64,000 nucleotides of DNA from Parcubacteria group bacterium Gr01-1014_8 (GTDB lineage Bacteria > Patescibacteriota > Minisyncoccia > Phycocordibacterales > UBA2100). The stretch lies in assembly GCA_007376385.1 (NCBI GenBank), contig VMGC01000003.1, positions 64,001 through 128,000 on the forward strand, read 5' to 3'. Under the pieces are notes generated by a model that searched no databases, was not told the DNA's origin, and saw only the letters and a list, made by a program, of their open reading frames with translations. Made by a program: the position numbers and the translations under genes. Numbering within the stretch: the first letter of the stretch is position 1; every line of letters starts with the position of its first letter. Below are positions 2,937 to 34,382 of this stretch, piece after piece.

Positions 2937-3182
2937 AACAATCCGCCCACAAGGACACTTTGGAAACACCACAAGAGTACTTCAGAAAATATACTCGTGC
3001 CACTCGTTATTTTCTTGGTCACACCTCAAGGGTACTTCCATTTTTCTAAGCCGGAGTACCGGCAAGAAAAATTGGTCGCCCACGGTTTTCCAACGGGCTT
3101 CGCCCTGCCTTCCTCCACGGGAAACAAAGTGTTTCCCCGACCCCCTTCCTGTCCAAGCGGGCGTCCATTCATTTCATTCATG

Positions 3183-3256
3183 TCCGCCCGCTTGGACTCG
3201 AACCAAGGACCCTCGAGGTATAAGCTCGATGCTCTAACCAACTGAGCTACGGGCGG
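3183..3256 (-). tRNA. tRNA, anticodon UAU (Ile-like, reads AUA)
   Basis: Hand-folded cloverleaf on the minus strand. Acceptor CCGCCCG/CGGGCGG, D-arm GCTCAGTTGGTTAGAGC, anticodon stem TCGAG/CTCGA with loop CTTATAC, T-arm CTTGG-TTCGAGT-CCAAG, discriminator A. CCA is not encoded. Confidence 0.7.
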
Positions 3257-3374
3257 AAGTGAGGAGCAATGTGCCAGCTCTTGAGCTCGCATATTGTCCG
3301 AACGCCCCGTCCGTATGGATTTCGTATACGGGCGGAGTGAACTCACGGATTATAGTCAGCCTGCGCCACTCGCG

Positions 3375-4343
3375 CTAGCGTATCAACTCCGAAAGCGACT
3401 TGCCTTCGTGCAACCGTTCGATCCCCTGCGCAACGAGTTCCGCAAGAGGAAGCACCGTAATTTTCACGCGTTTTGATTTTAGAAGTTCCGGGTCATGAGG
3501 AATCGAATCGGTAACGATAACTTCATCGACGGCAGAATCGTCAAAAGCTTCAATGACCTTCCTTGGATTCGACGCGAACACGGCATGCGTTGCGTAGCAG
3601 AAGATCTTTTTTGCGCCCGCTTCTTTTGCCGCCTCTGCATCGGCAATCATCGTGCCGCCCGAATCGATTATGTCATCTACAAATAGCACGTCTTTCCCCT
3701 CAACAGAGCCGATTATTTTTATAGACTCACGCTTTACCTGTCCGGGAGCAGAACGGCTTTTAGAAAAGACCACGAAATCTTCATGCCCGAGCCTTCTGGC
3801 GTACGCTTCTGCGCGCACCGCGTTTTTATCAGGAGACGCCACGATTGAAGACTCCGAGAGAATATTTTTCAAATATGGAACCGTCACTGACGACGAATAG
3901 AGATGATCAACCATCAGAGGATGAAAAAAACCAGCGGTCGGTTCCGAATGAACGTCAAAAAGAAGTGCTCTATCGGCGCCTGAATGCGCGAGGAAATCGA
4001 TGATGACCCTTGCGCTCGTCGCGACACGCGGCCTGTCTTTGCGGTCTTGCCGATTATAGCCAAGGTAGGTGGGAACAAGCGTGATCCTTCCGGCTGACGA
4101 ATCGTGCGCGGCTTCCGCAAGAAGCACCATCTCAAGGATGTTTTCTGCAGGCGGGTTAGTCGGGTTAATGATGAATACATCCGTGTCTCGCACGTTCTCC
4201 AGTATCTGCACGCGCACCTCGCCGTCATTGAACCTCGCGACCTGTGCTTCGCCGAGCTTAATACCAAGGCGCTTACACACTGCCTCTCCCATCGCTTGCC
4301 CGGCAACTCCGGTAAATATTTTGATGGGCCTGTCGTGGTTCAT
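3375..4343 (-). CDS. prs: ribose-phosphate pyrophosphokinase
   Basis: PRPP synthetase motifs (NGYNRQDRK, DxHS, DDIIDSGGT). Confidence 0.9.
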   Translation of the reverse strand: MNHDRPIKIFTGVAGQAMGEAVCKRLGIKLGEAQVARFNDGEVRVQILENVRDTDVFIINPTNPPAENILEMVLLAEAAHDSSAGRITLVPTYLGYNRQDRKDRPRVATSARVIIDFLAHSGADRALLFDVHSEPTAGFFHPLMVDHLYSSSVTVPYLKNILSESSIVASPDKNAVRAEAYARRLGHEDFVVFSKSRSAPGQVKRESIKIIGSVEGKDVLFVDDIIDSGGTMIADAEAAKEAGAKKIFCYATHAVFASNPRKVIEAFDDSAVDEVIVTDSIPHDPELLKSKRVKITVLPLAELVAQGIERLHEGKSLSELIR

Positions 4344-7226: not shown

Positions 7227-7376
7227 GCTCAGAGTATACCCCGTGAGATAGAGATATAGCGATTGCAATGAGCAGACGAGCTATTTCTGAAATAATTACT
7301 GGTGAAATATGACGAGCCGTTATCTCATGGGGTATACGCCCTATCGGAACCGGCTCACGCAGGGAAGTGGACAGTT

Positions 7377-9868: not shown

Positions 9869-10159
9869 TTTGCGGATTTGGATGGACACTGAGGGAGACT
9901 GAAGATGGACGACGAACTGCTGTTTATACTCATCGTTATCGTAGGAATCCTACTCTGTGTGGCATCTCCTTGGTGTATAGAGATATACACCTGGGTTAAG
10001 GGGAAGAGCGAATCTCTTTTCCGGGTCTTGCGACTAAAAGAGTAGCCCGTGCGGACGATCGAGGGCCACCCGGTCGTCTGCCTGTCCAAATTCGGAAACA
10101 GTTCTTTGAAAATTAAACAGCCAGTCCCCACCTCTGAACCTGAATCAGGTTCAGAGGTG

Positions 10160-10547
10160 GGGGGTGACTGGTTTCGACAGGAAATTCAATGTGCTTGTGT
10201 GCAAGACGGAAGTGAGAACCTTCCTAAAAAATCTCAAACTCTAAGTGCAAACAAAACTGCACGGGGGGTTCTTTCGCCGATTCAGGCGAAAGACCTCGGC
10301 CTCGTTTTCGCTTAATCGCCCAAACGACCGTTCGTTCAGCGGGTACTCGATACCGTTGACGCGAGCGTCATAACCATCGAGTCCGGTTTCTATTTCACTC
10401 CGAGTAGAGACTTAAAGAAAGAGAGTTAGCCGACGTATGCTTTCGTTCATCTTCTACATACATCGGCGAATCTTCAAGATGAACTACGTCTTGTAGACGC
10501 GCCTGTGCATCATTTCTTGGACTCGAGTTCAATTCTCGACACCTCCA
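10160..10547 (+). ncRNA. ssrA: tmRNA (SsrA), standard one-piece form
   Basis: 5' end GGGGGTGACTGGTTTCGACAGG matches the tmRNA consensus. 3' tRNA-like end reads GGACTCGAGTTCAATTCTCGACACCTCCA (T-arm plus acceptor). A G3:U wobble is present in the acceptor stem. Inferred tag ORF resumes at GCA (10247) and encodes ANKTARGVLSPIQAKDLGLVFA before a stop. Confidence 0.8.
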
Positions 10548-15344: not shown

Positions 15345-15947
15345 TTAATATTTGCGCACTACTGCAGTGACCACGGCTTCGATGCGAAACGATTCTTTTG
15401 GATAAAGCGCTCGGTAACGCTTATTCGCCGGCTCAAGATAGTATTGTTCTCCTGCCTGCGCCGCGAAGCCTCGCGTCGCGGCAGGCAGGCCCCGCTTCCG
15501 AAGATATTTCATCGTGTACTCGCTATCTATGCACGCAATAACTATTTGCCCCGGCTTGTAAGCACTCCTGCGCTCGACAATGACCATGTCGCCCGGTTGT
15601 ATCCCCGCTTCTATCATGGAATCTCCTTTTACTTTCAGAATGTAGCTCATCTCTTTATTCGGCGTGAGATATTCATCGAAATTCATCACGTCGAGAAGCT
15701 CTTCCTCTGCAGCTGAAGGAAAGCCAGCCTCTACCAACCCGAGCATCTTTACGCCTTCTTCTAGGTTCTGTGGCAGAAGTTTCCCCGAGCCGTCCTTTGA
15801 GATAACACCCTCTTCTATGAGCGCTTCGATGCGGTAGTTGACCGCGCTCTTTGTTTTGTACCCCCACAACTTCATCAATTCAGAGAATGTGGGCATCCTT
15901 TGCCGCGAACGATAAAACCCTGCCAGCTTTTCCTTGAATTTTTCCAT
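15345..15947 (-). CDS. lexA: LexA repressor
   Basis: N-terminal winged HTH. S24 peptidase with catalytic Ser/Lys (GDSM...K). Confidence 0.9.
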   Translation of the reverse strand: MEKFKEKLAGFYRSRQRMPTFSELMKLWGYKTKSAVNYRIEALIEEGVISKDGSGKLLPQNLEEGVKMLGLVEAGFPSAAEEELLDVMNFDEYLTPNKEMSYILKVKGDSMIEAGIQPGDMVIVERRSAYKPGQIVIACIDSEYTMKYLRKRGLPAATRGFAAQAGEQYYLEPANKRYRALYPKESFRIEAVVTAVVRKY

Positions 15948-17192: not shown

Positions 17193-18404
17193 CTATCCGC
17201 TTATCTTGAAAATGATCTTTGGGTGCTCGTTCATAGCTTTCTCAAAACTTTCGGGGGTAAATTTATGGAAATCCAGTAGTGTTCCCTTGCCGCTTTTCAA
17301 AATGACGTTCCACATATCATCTTGTATACCGTTCGACTTATCCGAAAGCATTCTCTGTGCTATCTGCCACGTCGCAAATATGCGCCTGCCAATAATGCCA
17401 TGTAGTGTGAGGCCGCGTACCACTACTTTCGGGGAGAAATTCGGGATGGTCATCGCGCCGTCTTTAATGCCGAATGCGATGACGTGACCGCCCCGGCGGG
17501 TCGAGAGAATGCAGTTATTCAATGAAGCCGCGGGGCCCGCCATTTCCATTGAAACATCGACGCCTTTGCCATAGGTTAACTCCATTATCCTGTCGATGAC
17601 TTCTGCATCGTGCTCCCATTCGTGTTCTTTCTTCTTCTTTCTGACGAGAATCGTCTCGTGAGCGCCCAAGCTCTTCGCCATTTTTAAATTCGCGGGATTC
17701 ACGTCCACTGCAATTATCTTCACCGCACCGAAACTACGCAAAAGCAATATCGCGAACATGCCGATGGGGCCGGCACCCATGACCGCAACTCTCTGACCGC
17801 GAAAATCAACAACCGTCGTCGAATGTACGGCATTGCCTATCGGATCAAGGATAGAGGCTATTTCCGGCCGAATGCGGCTTTGATCGATTGCCCATAGATT
17901 CTTGGCGGGGATCTTCACGTACTCCGCGAAAATACCATCGATTGAAATACCAAGGATGGCCTCATTCATACACACATGATCCTCGCCAATACGACACTGA
18001 AAGCAACGACCGCAGGTTACATGCGAGTCTCCCGACACAAGCGCGCCGACCTCGATCTTTACAGGGTTATTCGGGTCTAGGTCGTTGTACAAACGCTCGA
18101 CCATTGAACCCATCTCAACAACCTCGCCGACAAATTCATGGCCCATGATGCGCATCGTCTTTTTTTCCCGTTTCAGTGAGTCGTGCACAAGGTCGCGGAA
18201 GGCAGCGCGATTCCACATCCCTCTATCGGTACCACACACACCCGCGTATTTTATTTTCAAGATCACGGAGAGTGCGTCCTCAGGGTTTTTCCTTTCGTCC
18301 AGAACCGGCATCGGCACTTCCCGCATCACAAAGCCCCTGCTTTTCTGCCATCCGTCCTTGTTCGTATCGAACGTTAGAGCGCGAATAGTGTTCTTTTTAG
18401 CCAT
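17193..18404 (-). CDS. tdh: L-threonine 3-dehydrogenase (Zn-dependent MDR family)
   Basis: GVCGTD, GHEFVGEV, catalytic and structural zinc cysteines, GAGPIG Rossmann motif. Confidence 0.8.
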   Translation of the reverse strand: MAKKNTIRALTFDTNKDGWQKSRGFVMREVPMPVLDERKNPEDALSVILKIKYAGVCGTDRGMWNRAAFRDLVHDSLKREKKTMRIMGHEFVGEVVEMGSMVERLYNDLDPNNPVKIEVGALVSGDSHVTCGRCFQCRIGEDHVCMNEAILGISIDGIFAEYVKIPAKNLWAIDQSRIRPEIASILDPIGNAVHSTTVVDFRGQRVAVMGAGPIGMFAILLLRSFGAVKIIAVDVNPANLKMAKSLGAHETILVRKKKKEHEWEHDAEVIDRIMELTYGKGVDVSMEMAGPAASLNNCILSTRRGGHVIAFGIKDGAMTIPNFSPKVVVRGLTLHGIIGRRIFATWQIAQRMLSDKSNGIQDDMWNVILKSGKGTLLDFHKFTPESFEKAMNEHPKIIFKISG

Positions 18405-18475
18405 GGTACTGAACACTGTAGCTCAAACACCGAGGCAATGGAAGCGCTCAACATCTAAAATATTCCTGAGAAAAC

Positions 18476-21127
18476 CTACCGAGGCCGCGTTCCGGACTCC
18501 TTGGCTATGTACGAGGCAAGGCCGCCAGGTCTCGAGTAAGCGTACACGTCTTTTATTCCCATATCGTGGGCGAGCATCAAAACCATCTCTATCAATTGAC
18601 TCGAAACCGGTGCATCCGGCGTTATCACGATATCGTCCGAAGGAGTCGGATATTTGAGAAGCATGTTGTATCCAAGAGAGCTTTCGTCTTCCGGTCTGCT
18701 ATTAGGAATAACATCAACAAGTGACGCGCCCTCCCTCTGTCCGCCTTTTGGTTTCTTGTGGAATCGCATGACCGGATCATGCCCGGCATGAAGGTACTTT
18801 CGAACCTCCTCGGCATTTAGGGTACGCGTTACTTTTGGGATCGGCTTTTGCTGATAATCGGACGAGCAGATAGATATGCAGACGAGAGCATTGCCATGAG
18901 GATCGAGAACGGCAGGCGTCAATAATGCATCATAGGTCGTATGCAAGAGTGCGTTGGCTGAAAGGCTTGTGCGTGCGATCGCTATCTGCCCAAGAAGGTT
19001 ATCCTTTTCATCAGCGGCAAGAATGACAAGATGCTTCTGTATGTTCTTTTCATACTCGCTCTTCTCCGGCGAAAGATTGTCCCAGCACTGTCGGTACAAC
19101 TCATACGAGGGAGCCATCCATCGTGAATATCGGTGAAGAATGGTAAACCGGATTATCGGTTTCTGGACTCCTCGGCTCGGAGATGTGGAAACTGTGTTTT
19201 CCCACCTCCCTCGCTCTACGTCGCCGGTAAAACGACGTGCCGGCATTTTGAGAAGTCCGAATATTGATTCAAAACGCTCGTAGGGCAATGTCTTCTTCAA
19301 AACGCTCCGCTGCACTTTGCCCGTCGACGTCATCGGCAATTCGTCAGCGGAAAAAGAGGTGAGATACTTCGGCGTCTCATATGCGCTTAAGTACGCCGTG
19401 CCGAATAGAAGCGACAACTTGAGCCGACGTTTGGCCTTCTTCTCATCTGTACCCGCTTTCCAGCAAATGACCGCGCCCGCCTCTTCTCCGTAGCGCTCAT
19501 CGGGAACAGCAACAACGTACACCTGGTCGATCTCAGGAGATATCTTTTTCAAGGCATTCTCAAGAGCAACGGGCGAGATGTTAACCCCGCCCTTGATGAT
19601 GATCTCCCGCTTGCGGCCCTTCAGATAGAAGAATTTCTGCTCGCCAACGACCTTAAAATATCCGATGTCGCCCGAGAGAAAATATCCGCCTGCCTGCCGC
19701 GTCCGACCAGCGCTATATTCACGTCTTAACCATTTTCGACCAAACCCTGTTTTTAAGTTTTTCTCCCGCTGTACCGCTTCTTTCAACGATGGAAATTCTT
19801 CGTGGTGAATAATTCCTATCGGTTTATGCTTTTTGGTGTGCTCGGCGGCTATACCGTTATAATGTTGTCGCCATCGTTCATGTATATCTTGAGTTTGACC
19901 GATATAAAATGAACCATCATCACACTTGATGACATAAACATAGAACATTTCTGGTCGCGGCGCAGGCAGGTCACGGATGGCCGGCTCATTCGTAACATAC
20001 CCCTCCATAACGGCAGGCCCGCGTATCACCAGTTCACCTTCTTCTCCTTCACCGAGAAAGTTTCCTTTCTCATCCGATATCTGCACGTCGGCCCATGACA
20101 TTGCCGAGCCAATAGAATTTTCCTCTATCAGTTTCTCGTATAGACCAGGGGGCAGTCCCATAGGTACCCCGGTAACGCGAAGCGCTGTTTCAGTCTGCCC
20201 ATATCCTTGGTAGAGCGGAATATCGAATTTCGTCATGAACTCTTGCATCGTATGCACGACCACAGGAGCCGAGCCTATTTGGATGCGATTGAGCCGCAAT
20301 CCTTTTTTAACGAGCGCGTAACTCTCGGAGCGTCCTACTTGATCGAACAGGATGGATTGCACTATTGATGTGCAGGTTGCCTGACTTTTCGCAGCCTGCT
20401 GCCAGAAATGTGAGTTTGAGTAATTCGGCGTGATCGCAATGCTGCCGCCTGCGAGAAGCGCCGACAGGCAAAATGTGGTGGAATTTATGTGGTGCAACGG
20501 GAGGTTTACCAGAAACCTGTCTTCTTCTGTCATGTGAAGCCATTCCTTGATGCCTTCTGCGTTCACAACAAGGTTATTGAGAGTCAGTTTTGCTCCTTTT
20601 GGATACCCTGTAGTCCCTGATGTAAATAAAATAAGGGCACAATGTGAAAGACCGGATTCCCAGGCTACCGGTCTATCTGTAATATCGGCAAATCCCGCAA
20701 ATTCCTGGACTTTGACTTCTTTCAAAAAAATACTCTCAATATTTTTAAGCGCCTCCTTTTCTGCTATCAATAATGTTGCGTTGTTTATTTTTAATTTGTA
20801 TTGATACAACTCGCCGGTATCTCGCTTAGTATCGAGTGGAACAGTTACGACTCCGATACTCCACGCAGCCCAGCTTATTATGAGGAGTTCGGGCGAATTC
20901 TTAAATGCGAGAGCTACTCTATCGCCTCGTTTGATATCAAGCGCGTATAAATAGAGCGCAGCCTGTTTGATTTTCTGCAGCAATTCTTTGTACGTGATCT
21001 CCCCCGAGATCGTTCCTTCGTGATCACACGAGAGGAGCGCGACTTTTCCCGGATTCTTTTGCGAGAGAGCAGAAATGTGCGAGTAGAGGCTTTGTATGGA
21101 AGCATGCTGCATAACAATCATCCTCAA
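18476..21127 (-). CDS. AMP-dependent acyl-CoA synthetase carrying an in-frame GIY-YIG nuclease domain insertion and a ~280-aa C-terminal extension
   Basis: ANL motifs present (TSGTTGYPKG, GYGQTE, GWFRTGD-like GYFLSGDIGY, terminal lysine). A GIY-YIG module (FYVYVIKCDDGSFYIGQTQDIHERWRQH...EKNLK) interrupts the A-domain at about aa 388-478. Confidence 0.8.
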   Translation of the reverse strand: MRMIVMQHASIQSLYSHISALSQKNPGKVALLSCDHEGTISGEITYKELLQKIKQAALYLYALDIKRGDRVALAFKNSPELLIISWAAWSIGVVTVPLDTKRDTGELYQYKLKINNATLLIAEKEALKNIESIFLKEVKVQEFAGFADITDRPVAWESGLSHCALILFTSGTTGYPKGAKLTLNNLVVNAEGIKEWLHMTEEDRFLVNLPLHHINSTTFCLSALLAGGSIAITPNYSNSHFWQQAAKSQATCTSIVQSILFDQVGRSESYALVKKGLRLNRIQIGSAPVVVHTMQEFMTKFDIPLYQGYGQTETALRVTGVPMGLPPGLYEKLIEENSIGSAMSWADVQISDEKGNFLGEGEEGELVIRGPAVMEGYVTNEPAIRDLPAPRPEMFYVYVIKCDDGSFYIGQTQDIHERWRQHYNGIAAEHTKKHKPIGIIHHEEFPSLKEAVQREKNLKTGFGRKWLRREYSAGRTRQAGGYFLSGDIGYFKVVGEQKFFYLKGRKREIIIKGGVNISPVALENALKKISPEIDQVYVVAVPDERYGEEAGAVICWKAGTDEKKAKRRLKLSLLFGTAYLSAYETPKYLTSFSADELPMTSTGKVQRSVLKKTLPYERFESIFGLLKMPARRFTGDVERGRWENTVSTSPSRGVQKPIIRFTILHRYSRWMAPSYELYRQCWDNLSPEKSEYEKNIQKHLVILAADEKDNLLGQIAIARTSLSANALLHTTYDALLTPAVLDPHGNALVCISICSSDYQQKPIPKVTRTLNAEEVRKYLHAGHDPVMRFHKKPKGGQREGASLVDVIPNSRPEDESSLGYNMLLKYPTPSDDIVITPDAPVSSQLIEMVLMLAHDMGIKDVYAYSRPGGLASYIAKESGTRPR

Positions 21128-21130
21128 GCA

Positions 21131-21817
21131 CTATTTCCTCCGCTGGAACGAGACTTCCTGTGGCCCAACAGCGTATGGACCAACCTGATACTCTTGGAAA
21201 ATAAATATCACAGAATCTGCGTTCACGATAAAGGTCGCATAATTTTCCCTTTTTTCCTCAGTGCCCTCCGGAAAAAACGACCCTTCAAGCATTTTACTCA
21301 ACTCGCTTCGTGCCTTTTTCGCTACATCATTCAGCGAGAGATCAATGAGCTTCAGCGCGTCGTCCAGTGTGAGCTCCCGACCGCTTTCGCGTTCAAAATT
21401 TAATCCTCTGATATCCGTGAGCGGATGCATGCCGCCCATATATGTGGAGATTGCAAGCCGAGCACTTACGATGTCAGGGCCAATGTACGTTGAATCGTAG
21501 ACAGACGAAAGATCATACGGAACATCTGTATCAGTATTATCCAAACCGTATGGCCTGAATCCCAGTATGACCTCATCTATTTTTGCCGTAATGGCAGTAT
21601 CGATGGCTGCGAGCCCAAAATTCGGATATTTCATGGTTATCGTAAATCCTTTTGCATCTTCCTTGACGAGTTTTGCTATCAGATGGGCTGTTTCCCGATT
21701 GCTATCATTCTCTTCTGCGGGCGTATCTATAGAAGTTCTCTGGTACCGTGAGATCCCATAGCCGCCGAGAGCGGCTACAAGTAGTACAACCACTATGAGA
21801 ATTGCGCGTGAGTTCAT
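21131..21817 (-). CDS. membrane-anchored hypothetical protein
   Basis: Single N-terminal TM followed by a soluble domain. No confident family assignment. Confidence 0.4.
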   Translation of the reverse strand: MNSRAILIVVVLLVAALGGYGISRYQRTSIDTPAEENDSNRETAHLIAKLVKEDAKGFTITMKYPNFGLAAIDTAITAKIDEVILGFRPYGLDNTDTDVPYDLSSVYDSTYIGPDIVSARLAISTYMGGMHPLTDIRGLNFERESGRELTLDDALKLIDLSLNDVAKKARSELSKMLEGSFFPEGTEEKRENYATFIVNADSVIFIFQEYQVGPYAVGPQEVSFQRRK

Positions 21818-23725: not shown

Positions 23726-24544
23726 ATGCATGCGTTCTATATTGCGCTTCTCGCTCTCGTCATTCTCGCCCTGACCGTGGCGACAACATGGTACCCGCCC
23801 TCATCGTCGAATAGCCAGCTCGCATCGCCATCTCTAGAAACTGTCGCGCCGGAGACAGAAATGTCGGAAGCGACGGAAGGAGAGAAAAAAGAGACATATC
23901 GGGTGGTAAAGGTTGTCGACGGCGATACGCTCGCTCTCGAAATGGGCGGAAACAGCGTCACGGTGAGACTTATTGGTCTTGATACGCCTGAAACACTCGA
24001 CCCCCGTAAACCCGTGCAATGCTTTGGAAAAGAGGCGACGGAACATGCGAAAAAATTACTAGAAGGAAGGCGTGTGTCTATCGAAAAGGACCCGACACAA
24101 GGAGAATTGGACAAATACGGCCGCCTGCTGGTCTATGTGTATTTACCCGACCTGCCTGCCGAAGCCTCGGCGCAGGCAGGTGGCTTGATGTTCAACGAAC
24201 AAATGATATCGGAAGGTTACGGGCATGAGTACACATATAATATTCCTTACAAATATCAAACGGAATTTAAAGCCGCGGAAAATAAAGCGCGAGAGAGGAA
24301 ACGAGGTCTCTGGGCTGATAATGCGTGCGCCGAGGAATCAATGCGTGCACCAACCACTGCTGAAAAACCTATCGTGGTTGTGCCGTCGGGAAATTATGAC
24401 TGCACTCGCAATACATATAATTGCTCAAGTTTTAGAACGCAGACCGATGCGCAAGCCGCCTTTGGATCGTGCGGCGGGTCGGAGAACGATATACACAAAC
24501 TTGATAGTGATAAAGACGGGACTGTGTGCGAGAGCCTTCCGTAA
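23726..24544 (+). CDS. secreted thermonuclease (SNase-like) with C-terminal Excalibur Ca-binding domain
   Basis: Signal/TM N-terminus. SNase motif (VRLIGLDTPE, GRLL.YVY). C-terminal DCTRNTYNCSSF...DSDKDG (Excalibur). Confidence 0.8.
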   Translation: MHAFYIALLALVILALTVATTWYPPSSSNSQLASPSLETVAPETEMSEATEGEKKETYRVVKVVDGDTLALEMGGNSVTVRLIGLDTPETLDPRKPVQCFGKEATEHAKKLLEGRRVSIEKDPTQGELDKYGRLLVYVYLPDLPAEASAQAGGLMFNEQMISEGYGHEYTYNIPYKYQTEFKAAENKARERKRGLWADNACAEESMRAPTTAEKPIVVVPSGNYDCTRNTYNCSSFRTQTDAQAAFGSCGGSENDIHKLDSDKDGTVCESLP

Positions 24545-33301: not shown

Positions 33302-33332
33302 TCCAGTGTATTACACTTTCGTTTACCGAGCA

Positions 33333-33590
33333 CTAAGTTTGGTCTTGGCGACTTTCGGAAAGACGTTGCCTAAGCTTCGATTTAGCATATCCGCGATATT
33401 TTAACTGATGTTCGCGCCGACGTGCATCACCTTCAGCACGATAGGCTTCGTAATATATCAAGGTCCACTTATGTTTTCGCGTAAATTTTGACTTTCCCTT
33501 AATATGCTCAGAAAGTCGCCGCCTCAGATCGTTTGTCGAACCTACGTACAGCAAACCGTCCTGATTTTCCAGAACATATACGTAATGCAT
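33333..33590 (-). CDS. stand-alone GIY-YIG nuclease-domain protein
   Basis: HYVYVLENQDGLLYVGSTNDLRRRLSEH...REHQLK. Paralogous to the module inserted in the acyl-CoA synthetase. Confidence 0.75.
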   Translation of the reverse strand: MHYVYVLENQDGLLYVGSTNDLRRRLSEHIKGKSKFTRKHKWTLIYYEAYRAEGDARRREHQLKYRGYAKSKLRQRLSESRQDQT

Positions 33591-33605
33591 AAGAACAGAC
33601 CAAAC

Positions 33606-34382
33606 TTATAGCTCGGTTAAAATTTCTGCTCCGCTTTTTGTGACAAGCACTGTGTGTTCGGCATGCACTGTCCGGGAACCGTCTTTCGTGCGATAGGCGT
33701 GGCCGTCTTTGCCCGAATCGACACGCAAATCGCCAGAACCTCTTGCGAACATCGGCTCAATTGCGATGACATGACCCTCAACAAGTTTGTCTCCTTCCCC
33801 GGGAATTCCGTAGTTCGGCACATGCGGCTCTTCATGCACCGTCCGTCCTACTCCGTGCCCGCTTAGATTGCGCGGAAACCCAAGGTTGTATTTTTTCGCT
33901 ATGCGCTCCACAGCATGTCCGATGTCGCCGGTCGTGTTCCCCACTTTCGCTTGTGCTATTCCTGCGTCGAGCGCCTCATAGGCGGCATGAACTAATTTTT
34001 CATCCTCCGGGTCTCGCGCCTCTCCTGCAATACGTGTGATGGCATGGTCGGTAAAGAATCCTCCGTGGATGATGCCAAAATCCAACGACACAATGTCGCC
34101 ATCGTGAATGACATCATCGCTCTGTCCGGCTGGATTATGAACGATGGCACTGTTTATGGAAACACTGAGAGCTGACGGCATCGGATTTTTATCGCTCGCG
34201 TACTTATAGTTAAGGAACGCAGGCTCGTCGCCATCCTCTTCAACCATTCTGCGGGCCTCCATTTCGAGCTGCCGCGCTGTAATTCCTGGTCGTATCATGC
34301 CTGCAAGCGCTTGCAGATGGCGCGCAAGACGCCTGCCGCCCTCTCTCAGGACGGCAATTTCTTCAGGGGTTCTTGCTATCAT
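33606..34382 (-). CDS. map: methionine aminopeptidase type I
   Basis: Metal ligands D, D, H, E, E in the conserved pita-bread fold (HGVG, IAIEPM). Confidence 0.9.
   Translation of the reverse strand: MIARTPEEIAVLREGGRRLARHLQALAGMIRPGITARQLEMEARRMVEEDGDEPAFLNYKYASDKNPMPSALSVSINSAIVHNPAGQSDDVIHDGDIVSLDFGIIHGGFFTDHAITRIAGEARDPEDEKLVHAAYEALDAGIAQAKVGNTTGDIGHAVERIAKKYNLGFPRNLSGHGVGRTVHEEPHVPNYGIPGEGDKLVEGHVIAIEPMFARGSGDLRVDSGKDGHAYRTKDGSRTVHAEHTVLVTKSGAEILTEL

Follow-up and report, generated by a model that had tools for sequence, protein, structure and literature searches.

Introduction

The Ssn proteins are single-domain GIY-YIG enzymes of about 94 amino acids (aa) that bind hairpin repeats (NTS/SRM) and cut adjacent single-stranded DNA (ssDNA) (Chenal et al. 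2025, PMC11893778). The same authors noted that Ssn genes are flanked by repeats in an arrangement like that of an insertion sequence (IS), and that the repeats have multiplied in the genome (PMC11893778). This is the closest described system to the element studied here, a 282-nucleotide (nt) insert that carries a GIY-YIG nuclease in frame inside an acyl-CoA synthetase gene of Parcubacteria group bacterium Gr01-1014_8, a tiny bacterium from groundwater. The gene lies in a 64,000-nt stretch of contig VMGC01000003.1 (positions 64,001 to 128,000), called the window below and numbered from its own first base. We have high confidence that the observation is real and that the insert belongs to a family of in-frame GIY-YIG cassettes that are bounded by hairpins and occur across phyla. 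It is probably a copy of a compact mobile element and not an evolved part of the enzyme.

The cassette resembles the Ssn system in its single GIY-YIG domain of about 90 aa without a DNA-binding domain, in its GC-rich inverted repeats that can form hairpins, and in the presence of extra hairpins elsewhere in the genome. With 94 codons it also has the length of a single-domain Ssn protein. However, the cassette gene lies within one split hairpin, with one arm on each side, whereas an Ssn gene lies between two complete hairpins. The cassette is found in frame in host open reading frames (ORFs), with neither a start nor a stop codon, whereas NTS are rarely intragenic (2%; PMC11893778). It has GA upstream in place of the CGTC tag of the Ssn repeats, and its copy number is low. 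The SRM consensus HGTCWY..YYVSBRH..WNVSBRG..RNCYNB had no match on either strand of the 64-kb window, compared with 0.38 expected by chance.

Palindromes within protein genes form a second group of related systems. Rickettsia palindromic elements (RPEs), which Ogata and co-workers reportedly described in 2000, are said to be palindromes that lie in frame in genes. Intragenic REPs are palindromic repeats in frame in protein genes that are kept in the product, and they occur in varied proteins, including those of replication and repair (Di Nocera et al. 2013, PMC3733652). The cassette shares with both the in-frame palindromic repeats that are retained in unrelated proteins. Yet RPEs and intragenic REPs carry no gene, whereas the long form of the cassette encodes a nuclease, and the cassette lacks both the GTAG and the CGTC tag.

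REPtrons and IS200/IS605 elements likewise have a nuclease gene between inverted palindromes, hairpin ends and dispersed short non-autonomous palindromes, and they insert beside a short specific sequence without a target-site duplication. Their enzyme is an HUH tyrosine transposase, whereas the cassette encodes a GIY-YIG hydrolase and is intragenic and frame-preserving; RAYT genes, in contrast, are intergenic and come with a start and a stop codon of their own. Assignment to the REPtrons (RAYT plus REP) was rejected, as no Y1 transposase was matched in Pfam and the ends have no GTAG tag. The cassette does have the terminal inverted repeats of a transposon or miniature inverted-repeat transposable element (9-nt perfect ends and arms of about 20 nt, both conserved and covarying), but neither a target-site duplication nor a recognised transposase (DDE, HUH, serine or tyrosine recombinase) was found, the GIY-YIG domain being the only one.

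Inteins resemble the cassette as selfish nuclease-coding inserts in frame in conserved and often essential proteins, in distant taxa and at recurrent sites in particular genes. They splice out, whereas the cassette has neither a Hint domain nor splice residues and so must stay in the protein; they carry LAGLIDADG or HNH nucleases instead of GIY-YIG, and the cassette is bounded by DNA inverted repeats. The I-TevI, Seg and Mob endonucleases have the same catalytic fold and motifs and are tied to mobile DNA. They are, however, two-domain proteins of about 200–250 aa with a DNA-binding domain, free-standing or intron-encoded, and with their own translation signals. By sequence and by fold, the nearest proteins are the UPF0213 family (YhbQ, YazA, BH0048, EF2693) and Slx1, small enzymes that consist of the catalytic core only. 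Slx1 cuts branched and stem-loop DNA. UPF0213 proteins are stand-alone cellular genes and Slx1 has a RING/PHD domain and needs Slx4; neither is embedded in a host gene or accompanied by these repeats. Searches of the full-text literature for in-frame GIY-YIG cassettes, their terminal sequences and HsdS fusions returned no description, though an unindexed account may exist. The in-frame, host-translated lifestyle thus appears undescribed so far in the literature searched.

An in-frame GIY-YIG insert in an acyl-CoA synthetase

The host gene (18476..21127, minus strand) is an 883-aa ORF for a class I adenylate-forming enzyme (ANL, acyl-CoA synthetase-like), as judged by Pfam, its orthologues and a structure model. 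Pfam matches cover residues 23–377 (AMP-binding, 6e-61), 394–462 (GIY-YIG, 5e-15) and 523–604 (AMP-binding_C). Membership of the ANL superfamily is supported by PF00501 (6e-61) and PF13193 (7e-6) together with a confident fold on either side of the insert. The first-pass annotation, made from the letters of the sequence, had reported a GIY-YIG module in frame within this enzyme, between the GY-x-N-x-PE motif and the hinge motif. Pfam bears out the module, and the orthologues its position. The best 120 database relatives are Kaiserbacteria/Paceibacterota proteins of the Candidate Phyla Radiation (CPR), about 745–760 aa long, and none of these 120 has a GIY-YIG match in Pfam, so that the segment is not a universally conserved part of the subfamily. 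Alignment with 11 orthologues gave a single clean gap. With a slash for the insertion point, the orthologues read ...EPAFRD/GYFLTGD..., while the window protein reads ...EPAIRD-LPAPRPEMFYV...AGRTRQAG-GYFLSGD.... The insertion point falls between the GY-x-N-x-PE motif and the GYFLSGD hinge motif.

A separate record of the same DNA argues against an assembly artefact. A contig in ENA is 100% identical over 18.8 kb, and the same gene is called there as one 881-aa product with AMP-binding and GIY-YIG domains. A word-indexed protein search with the 883-aa synthetase found no identical entry, even though ENA has the 881-aa gene call; the SNase neighbour of the synthetase has a 100%-identity entry in the protein database.

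The insert does not look like one that is removed before the mature product. The absence of intein splicing motifs, as first proposed, holds: there is no Hint or intein match in Pfam and the junctions are D/LPAP... and ...RQAG/GYF. A hidden intron also found no support, since no Rfam model matched at E<=1 in 18400–21200. Both candidates, an intein (Hint domain absent, junction residues wrong) and a group I or II intron (no Rfam covariance match in that interval), were rejected. The cassette peptide MFYVYVIKCDDGSFYIGQ... is present in the 883-aa ORF, which is open through both junctions, and the integrity of the ORF suggests that the host protein is translated straight through the insert, as had been supposed.

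Palindromic ends and the insertion site

The insert covers 19689..19970 on the minus strand (282 nt, 94 codons), from CCTGCCTGC to GCAGGCAGG, and is read as LPAPRPE, the GIY-YIG domain and AGRTRQAG. Its borders were set by these exact 9-mers and by the orthologue alignment; they are slightly wider than the span of 19696–19966 first given. What the first-pass annotation had not seen is the feature that defines the insert as a discrete 282-nt element, namely inverted arms of about 20 nt with palindromic ends. The terminal 9 nt are perfect palindromes, inverted to each other. The 5′ arm (19951..19970, minus strand; CCTGCCTGCGCCGCGACCAG) is translated as LPAPRP and the 3′ arm (19689..19710, minus strand; CTGGTCGGACGCGGCAGGCAGG) as AGRTRQAG. 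Both were delimited by RNA folding, comparison of the arms and covariation, and in RNAfold they pair across the intervening ~240 nt. The element ends are thus read as Pro/Gly-rich linkers (LPAPRP... and ...RQAG).

The flanks explain how the frame is kept. The 5′ target flank on the minus strand (19971..19972) is GA, the first two bases of a split host Asp codon. The 3′ target flank (19685..19688, minus strand) is C, the third base of that codon, followed by the host Gly codon GGA, where the orthologues read RD/GYF. The host GAC codon is cut after its second base and the first C of the element restores the Asp codon, while the last GG of the element and the displaced host base make a Gly codon. 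The uninterrupted duplex site of the host gene would be CGTGACGGATAT. No target-site duplication was found at the cassette; the GA and YGG flanks are not repeats of each other and at most 1 nt is ambiguous.

The nuclease is a bare catalytic core

The GIY-YIG catalytic domain lies at 19742..19948 (minus strand; aa 394–462) and scores 55.9 bits against PF01541, above the cut-off of 22.6 bits (E 5e-15). All catalytic residues are in place: the conserved Tyr, Tyr-Ile-Gly, Arg, His and Glu occur in FYVYV, FYIGQ, ERWRQH and REK, and they are at least 90% conserved in 85 and in 105 relatives (see below). The nuclease is a catalytic core of about 80 aa, and GIY-YIG is the only domain found in the 94 codons. 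The window cassette has no start codon of its own, no stop codon and no DNA-binding domain, and is a bare GIY-YIG domain between arms. A start codon at M393, the initial M of the segment first described, was rejected as a family feature because Met occurs near the nuclease start in only 2 of 86 cassettes, the window copy included. This M is coincidental, and the cassettes as a family lack an initiation codon.

Sequence matches in the Protein Data Bank (PDB) were led by structures of the UPF0213 proteins BH0048 and EF2693 (1zg2, 6e-17, and 1ywl, 8e-16), followed by Slx1 (2e-4), and the top fold matches were 1zg2, Slx1 (6seh) and 1ywl. The AlphaFold model of the cassette alone is confident (predicted local distance difference test, pLDDT, of 83), with elements in the order beta-beta-alpha-alpha-beta-alpha-alpha and disordered end linkers. 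In the full-length model the ANL domains flanking the insert have a pLDDT above 90, whereas the insert is of low confidence, as the alignment gave no cover there; it shows the same secondary structure, and residues 461–479 are disordered. The insert was modelled separately because MAFFT misaligned the cassettes in a combined alignment of host orthologues and cassettes. The models are consistent with a separate domain on a surface loop. Assignment to the I-TevI type of homing endonuclease was rejected, as no further domain was found and TIGR01453, the intron endonuclease model, gave 22.8 bits compared with a cut-off of 56.05, over the first ~35 residues only.

The window has a second GIY-YIG gene, a stand-alone ORF of 85 aa at 33333–33590 (minus strand; Pfam 9e-16), which had been called a paralogue of the insert. 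It is a GIY-YIG gene, but a distant one (36% identity) with different flanking repeats, and it was rejected as the donor. It is bracketed by a 24-nt inverted repeat, 88% complementary (33322–33620), that is unrelated to the cassette arms and occurs nowhere else in the window; the end of a methionine aminopeptidase gene, with its final codons and stop codon, lies in the upstream arm. Here too a split hairpin encloses a nuclease gene, but the case is a different one and comes closer to the canonical Ssn-like arrangement between genes.

Cassettes are found in many host genes and phyla

A protein search with the 95-aa insert found 13 proteins at 49–62% identity. In all 13, LPAPRP stands ahead of the nuclease and RQAG(G) behind it, whereas the sequences further out are mutually unrelated. 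On the contigs that we inspected, one cassette lies in frame within a 611-aa HsdM ORF (VEDE/cassette/GIPFEEKM), and others were found C-terminally in an Eco57I-like methylase, within a Fic gene and next to further methylases. All of these protein-derived loci have the same first 14 nt, and their last 13 nt are identical or one base off (L005); the end-to-end distance is 281 nt in 4 of 7 copies. The end codons are the same even though the interiors share only ~60% of their amino acids, which indicates that selection acts on the DNA itself.

We then scanned GTDB, with one genome per species, at the DNA level with the pattern CTGCCTGCGCCGCG-N(250–280)-CGGCAGGCAGG, which fixes the terminal 14 and 11 nt. 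The scan gave 83 loci from more than 20 phyla, including CPR groups, Verrucomicrobiota, Planctomycetota, Nitrospira, Desulfobacterota, Chloroflexota, Acidobacteriota, Bacteroidota, Gammaproteobacteria, Clostridia, Omnitrophota and others, and one metagenome-assembled genome labelled as archaeal. Together with the earlier protein-derived loci and the window copy, this made a set of 89 cassettes.

The LPA frame is open in 86 of the 89. An ORF of at least 50 aa upstream and at least 30 aa downstream accompanies 76 of these 86, whereas positions, frames and strands drawn at random from these loci have one in 21% of cases; the median host ORF is about 640 aa long. The lengths (n=89) are 281 (50 cassettes, the same 281/282-nt unit as in the window), 284 (15), 296 (9), 299 (5), 290 (3), 287 (2), 278 (2), 293 (1) and 305 nt (1). 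Intact cassettes, at 278–305 nt, are all congruent modulo 3, and the sole frame-breaking length, 295 nt, belongs to one of three degenerate copies. The three bases ahead of CTGCC are G in 77, A in 78 and C in 85 of the 89 cassettes; behind CAGG follow C or T (76), G (70), G (49) and C (50), a 3′ consensus of Y-G-G-C. The preferred context is therefore GA/N-GG, usually encoding Asp-Gly.

The hosts are diverse. Among 85 members of the cassette family, the host families are HsdM/N6_Mtase (18), HsdR (8), DUF1156 (8), SNF2 (5), HsdS (5), Type ISP (4) and Eco57I (3), with single cases such as LeuRS, ArgRS, MsrB, UvrB, phosphoadenosine phosphosulfate (PAPS) reductase, cobalamin adenosyltransferase, RibD_C and RecO, among others. 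The cassettes nearest to the window copy (64–69%) are in UvrB, ArgRS, LeuRS, RibD_C and a glyoxalase-like gene, all except that of LeuRS in CPR genomes. A separate, exhaustive profile search of 1.84 billion cluster representatives gave 166 representatives at E<=1e-30, and about 135 of the best 150 exceed 160 aa with an internal match. Scanning of 105 of these proteins placed 57 in HsdS; the rest include trigger factor, pseudouridine synthase, TrmD, QueC, TatD, ArgRS, MsrB and Ogt. LPAP and RQAG are at least 90% conserved. The exact cassette pattern occurred in none of 2.9 million viral contigs, and PLSDB yielded only distant stand-alone genes of the UPF0213 type.

Cassette lineages follow the host gene site in 40 of 46 cases, which fits either site-specific spread within gene families or old insertions on mobile restriction-modification (R-M) genes. 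The enrichment in R-M genes may reflect the tolerance of non-essential, horizontally mobile genes or a functional benefit.

Several loci have further features. A 655-aa HsdS (P0134) contains two different GIY-YIG cassettes, one directly ahead of the conserved EPASxLLERI-type motif and one ahead of KEPKNDKW; these are two independent insertions in one gene. An 1101-aa DUF1156 methylase (P0182) has, besides its GIY-YIG cassette, an in-frame DUF559 (Vsr-like endonuclease) segment between copies of the peptide SPSPSDMERGPGGE, possibly an in-frame nuclease cassette of another, unrelated kind. Where the cassette sits at the Eco57I-like methylase (L001, 1990–2390; L003 and L004, ~2990–3420), the host ORF stops immediately upstream of it, and this end is an AT-rich duplicate of the ORF's own C-terminus (GLTEDEIKIIENK, then the stop codon), while the original, GC-richer C-terminus (GLTPEEIEMVEG...) is still in frame behind the cassette. 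The host gene seems to have acquired a substitute 3′ end, by which the cassette is excluded from the host protein.

The arms covary as a stem

Pairing of the arms was analysed in 47 distinct cassettes of 281 nt, with 500 shuffles and slid registers as controls. The outer 14 and 11 nt are set by the search pattern and are uninformative in this test. The proposed stem is 94% paired and consists of an outer helix of 9+2 base pairs (bp), an internal loop and an inner helix of 7 bp. Pair 18–39 is GC in 17 cassettes, AU in 11, CG in 7, UA in 5 and GU in 1, and is unpaired in 6; pair 21–36 has four Watson-Crick or wobble types and a weaker signal. Both the covariation score and the number of double-change cells exceed those of 500/500 shuffles and of every slid register. 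The partners of pair 18–39 are both third codon positions, one in the CGN Arg codon of LPAPRP and the other in the GGN Gly codon ahead of RxRQAG. Since complementarity is kept at synonymous sites, the arms appear to be maintained as a nucleic-acid stem (ssDNA, extruded DNA or RNA) and not as two copies of a protein-binding site.

Short hairpins share the ends of the cassette

The 64-kb window holds exactly three units of the form CCTGCCTGC...GCAGGCAGG, the cassette and two short hairpins. A 30-nt hairpin (24151..24180) is in frame in the SNase gene at 23726–24544 (plus strand), where it adds LPAEASAQAG between D and G, and the Pfam SNase match spans it. Among 12 aligned SNase orthologues, 11 read YVYLxD/G with nothing inserted, and P0285 has a longer insert of another kind there. 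A 39-nt hairpin (15451..15489) is in frame in a LexA-like (Peptidase_S24) gene at 15345–15947 (minus strand) and adds LPAATRGFAAQAG; the Peptidase_S24 match likewise spans it. Each hairpin has 13–16 nt in common with the cassette arms at one end and 11–13 nt at the other.

In 656 kb, comprising the loci and the window, we found 18 short hairpins with these ends. Their lengths (30, 33, 36, 39 and 54 nt) are multiples of 3 in 17 of 18 cases, and the majority are located in long ORFs, where LPA...QAG is the usual reading frame. They appear to be either products of deletion within the cassette or non-autonomous partners of it.

Hairpins of other kinds were also seen. At L003 (3036–3400), the cassette contains, and has next to it, GC-rich 27-nt hairpins that belong to other sequence families and read PARASHAGG and CLRAVTHRQ; a peptide similar to the former, PARAPHAGG, occurs in the SNase orthologue P0285. 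In-frame mini-hairpins of several families seem to be common in these genomes.

Other features of the synthetase and the window

The C-terminal region of the synthetase had been described as an extension of ~280 aa without an obvious family. No Pfam or PDB sequence family matched it, in agreement with that description, but it is not peculiar to this gene. A domain of ~225 aa (18476–19156, minus strand), modelled as an alpha/beta fold with a pLDDT mostly above 90, is kept in the aligned orthologues. In this CPR clade as a whole, the ANL enzyme has this uncharacterised domain fused to it.

A further insert of ~29 aa (ARRFTGDVERGRWENTVSTSPSRGVQKPI), also lineage-specific, lies at 19155–19243 (aa ~629–657), in the linker that joins AMP-binding_C to the C-terminal domain. 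It is missing in 10 of 11 aligned orthologues, and P0077 has an unrelated insert at that place. A direct repeat, CGTTTTACC / CGGTTTACC, borders this insert. The insert DNA gives a better fold than shuffled sequences do (z = -3.0), and it may be another small inserted element. Other strong palindromes in the window lie at 10115–10173 (29-nt arms, 1 nt apart), 3146–3202, 7234–7337 and 63383–63422. Only short ORFs are found there, and the palindromes may be terminators or other repeat elements.

Discussion

We propose that the GIY-YIG segment of the synthetase is one copy of a compact mobile element, and we hold this explanation as a whole, with its mechanism, to be probably right. The observations that bear on it directly are the discrete anatomy, the preservation of the frame, the wide distribution, the recurrent GA/Y-GG flank, the pairing arms, the intact nuclease and the short derivatives. 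For the way in which the cassette moves, our confidence is moderate. On this explanation the element entered a GAC (Asp) codon behind its second base, with a Gly codon next in line, in a surface loop of the ANL enzyme. The nuclease would be made only as an internal domain of the host polypeptide, its translation being driven by the host, and would act like the related single-domain enzymes of the Ssn, UPF0213 and Slx1 type. It may recognise the stem of the paired arms in single-stranded or extruded DNA. Pairing would bring both element-host junctions together, and cleavage at the base of the stem would allow excision or copying and then re-insertion at GA^NGG sites. Only frame-preserving insertions would persist, because they spare the host gene and are the sole ones to express the nuclease. 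The hairpins of 30–39 nt would be non-autonomous or deletion derivatives.

Several points weigh against this explanation. Mobility and mechanism are deduced from comparison, and movement itself was not observed. An empty-site allele of the synthetase was not found: the exact 24-mer of the uninterrupted junction is absent from the metagenome contigs, so that no polymorphism of presence and absence was seen, and the nearest orthologue is only ~69% identical. The copy number per genome is low, with one cassette and two short hairpins in 64 kb, unlike that of typical IS or REP families. GIY-YIG enzymes hydrolyse DNA and we know of none that joins strands, so the insertion chemistry is undemonstrated. 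The published Ssn repeat motif is absent from the window, and no vector candidates were found among the viral contigs or plasmids searched. Conservation of the ends in the 83 scanned loci holds by construction, and independent support comes only from the six independent cassette sequences among the protein-derived loci L001–L010. The pairing of the arms fits a role in mRNA equally well. Finally, the match between cassette lineage and site could reflect old insertions carried by horizontally transferred R-M genes and not ongoing transposition.

The alternative that survives best, though we think it unlikely, is a classical homing endonuclease gene without an intron or intein, which cuts the uninterrupted host allele and is copied in by repair; the synthetase copy would then be a rare ectopic event. 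Lineages and length classes that follow sites in HsdM, HsdR, HsdS and DUF1156 genes across phyla would be expected from homing, as would an HsdS with two cassettes at its two repeated conserved regions, and there is the weak similarity to the group I intron endonuclease model. But the whole cassette is a catalytic core of ~80 aa with linkers and has no DNA-binding domain, and its score of 22.8 bits against TIGR01453 is below the 56-bit cut-off. More than 30 Pfam host families have nothing in common but the GA/YGG flank. The conserved, covarying inverted arms have no role in such a model, and short hairpins with the same ends but no coding content sit at other sites. The first-pass annotation had offered a domesticated or invading homing-endonuclease domain. 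The segment does look like an invader and not an old part of the enzyme, but the homing label fits it poorly, given the missing DNA-binding domain, the sub-threshold TIGR01453 score and the dozens of unrelated host genes.

Less likely again is domestication, in which the domain was recruited for the benefit of its hosts, for example to add a cleavage activity to R-M subunits, with the synthetase copy as a by-product or moonlighting case. The enrichment in R-M and defence genes (HsdS 57/105; HsdM 18, HsdR 8 and DUF1156 8 of 85) and the purifying selection on catalytic residues would suit this idea. It does not account for the same cassette in loops of ArgRS, LeuRS, UvrB, MsrB, trigger factor, TrmD, QueC and an ANL enzyme, where a DNA nuclease has no evident use, and 120 of 120 orthologues of the synthetase manage without it. 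Conservation of the ends at the DNA level and covariation at synonymous sites further point to selection on nucleic acid and not on protein.

Removal of the insert before the mature protein, as an intein, a self-splicing intron, a stem processed by RNase or a translational bypass, seems very improbable to us. The arms can form a transcript stem of ~20 bp that brings the host flanks side by side, and the weaker covarying pair includes G-U pairs. Nevertheless, the junction residues are Leu and Gly instead of Cys, Ser, Thr or His-Asn, no Hint or intein domain and no Rfam group I or II intron match at E<=1 were found, and the 282 nt are almost wholly coding. The frame stays open through both junctions in 86 of 89 copies and in all length variants, which is expected only if ribosomes read across both. 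An assembly or binning artefact, in which a chimeric join placed a GIY-YIG gene in the synthetase gene, can be practically dismissed: the source is a metagenome-assembled genome and GC-rich palindromes can confuse assemblers, but the join is exactly in frame at both ends, the separate ENA record is 100% identical over 18.8 kb, and the same architecture occurs in 89 cassettes from independent assemblies, long-read chromosomes included.

If the mobile-element explanation is correct, it may extend further. More tentatively, and at somewhat less than an even chance, we suggest that the cassettes form a class of prokaryotic mobile element in its own right, a nuclease cassette that is obligately intragenic, preserves the frame and lacks translation signals, and whose palindromic ends double as the recognition structure of the nuclease and as the code for linkers. 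The spread of such an element across bacterial phyla would rest on single-strand cleavage directed by the hairpin and on insertion at GA^NGG, and the short hairpins in other genes would be derivatives left behind. In effect it would correspond to an intein that does not splice, with an Ssn-like GIY-YIG enzyme at its core.

Selfish DNA would then have a widespread mode of existence in bacteria that has so far gone undescribed: it would reside in working genes as an added protein domain and borrow the promoter, ribosome-binding site, start codon and stop codon from the host. The cassette has reached essential enzymes (tRNA synthetases, UvrB, trigger factor) in small CPR genomes and is concentrated in R-M genes in many other phyla. 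Ssn-type ssDNA nucleases would gain a concrete role as the engine of a mobile element. Recurrent LPAP...RQAG insertions and odd domain fusions in metagenomic protein catalogues could be explained. The cassettes would also mark enzyme loops that tolerate an insertion of 94 residues, and would offer small hairpin-specific nucleases with defined DNA partners for tool development.

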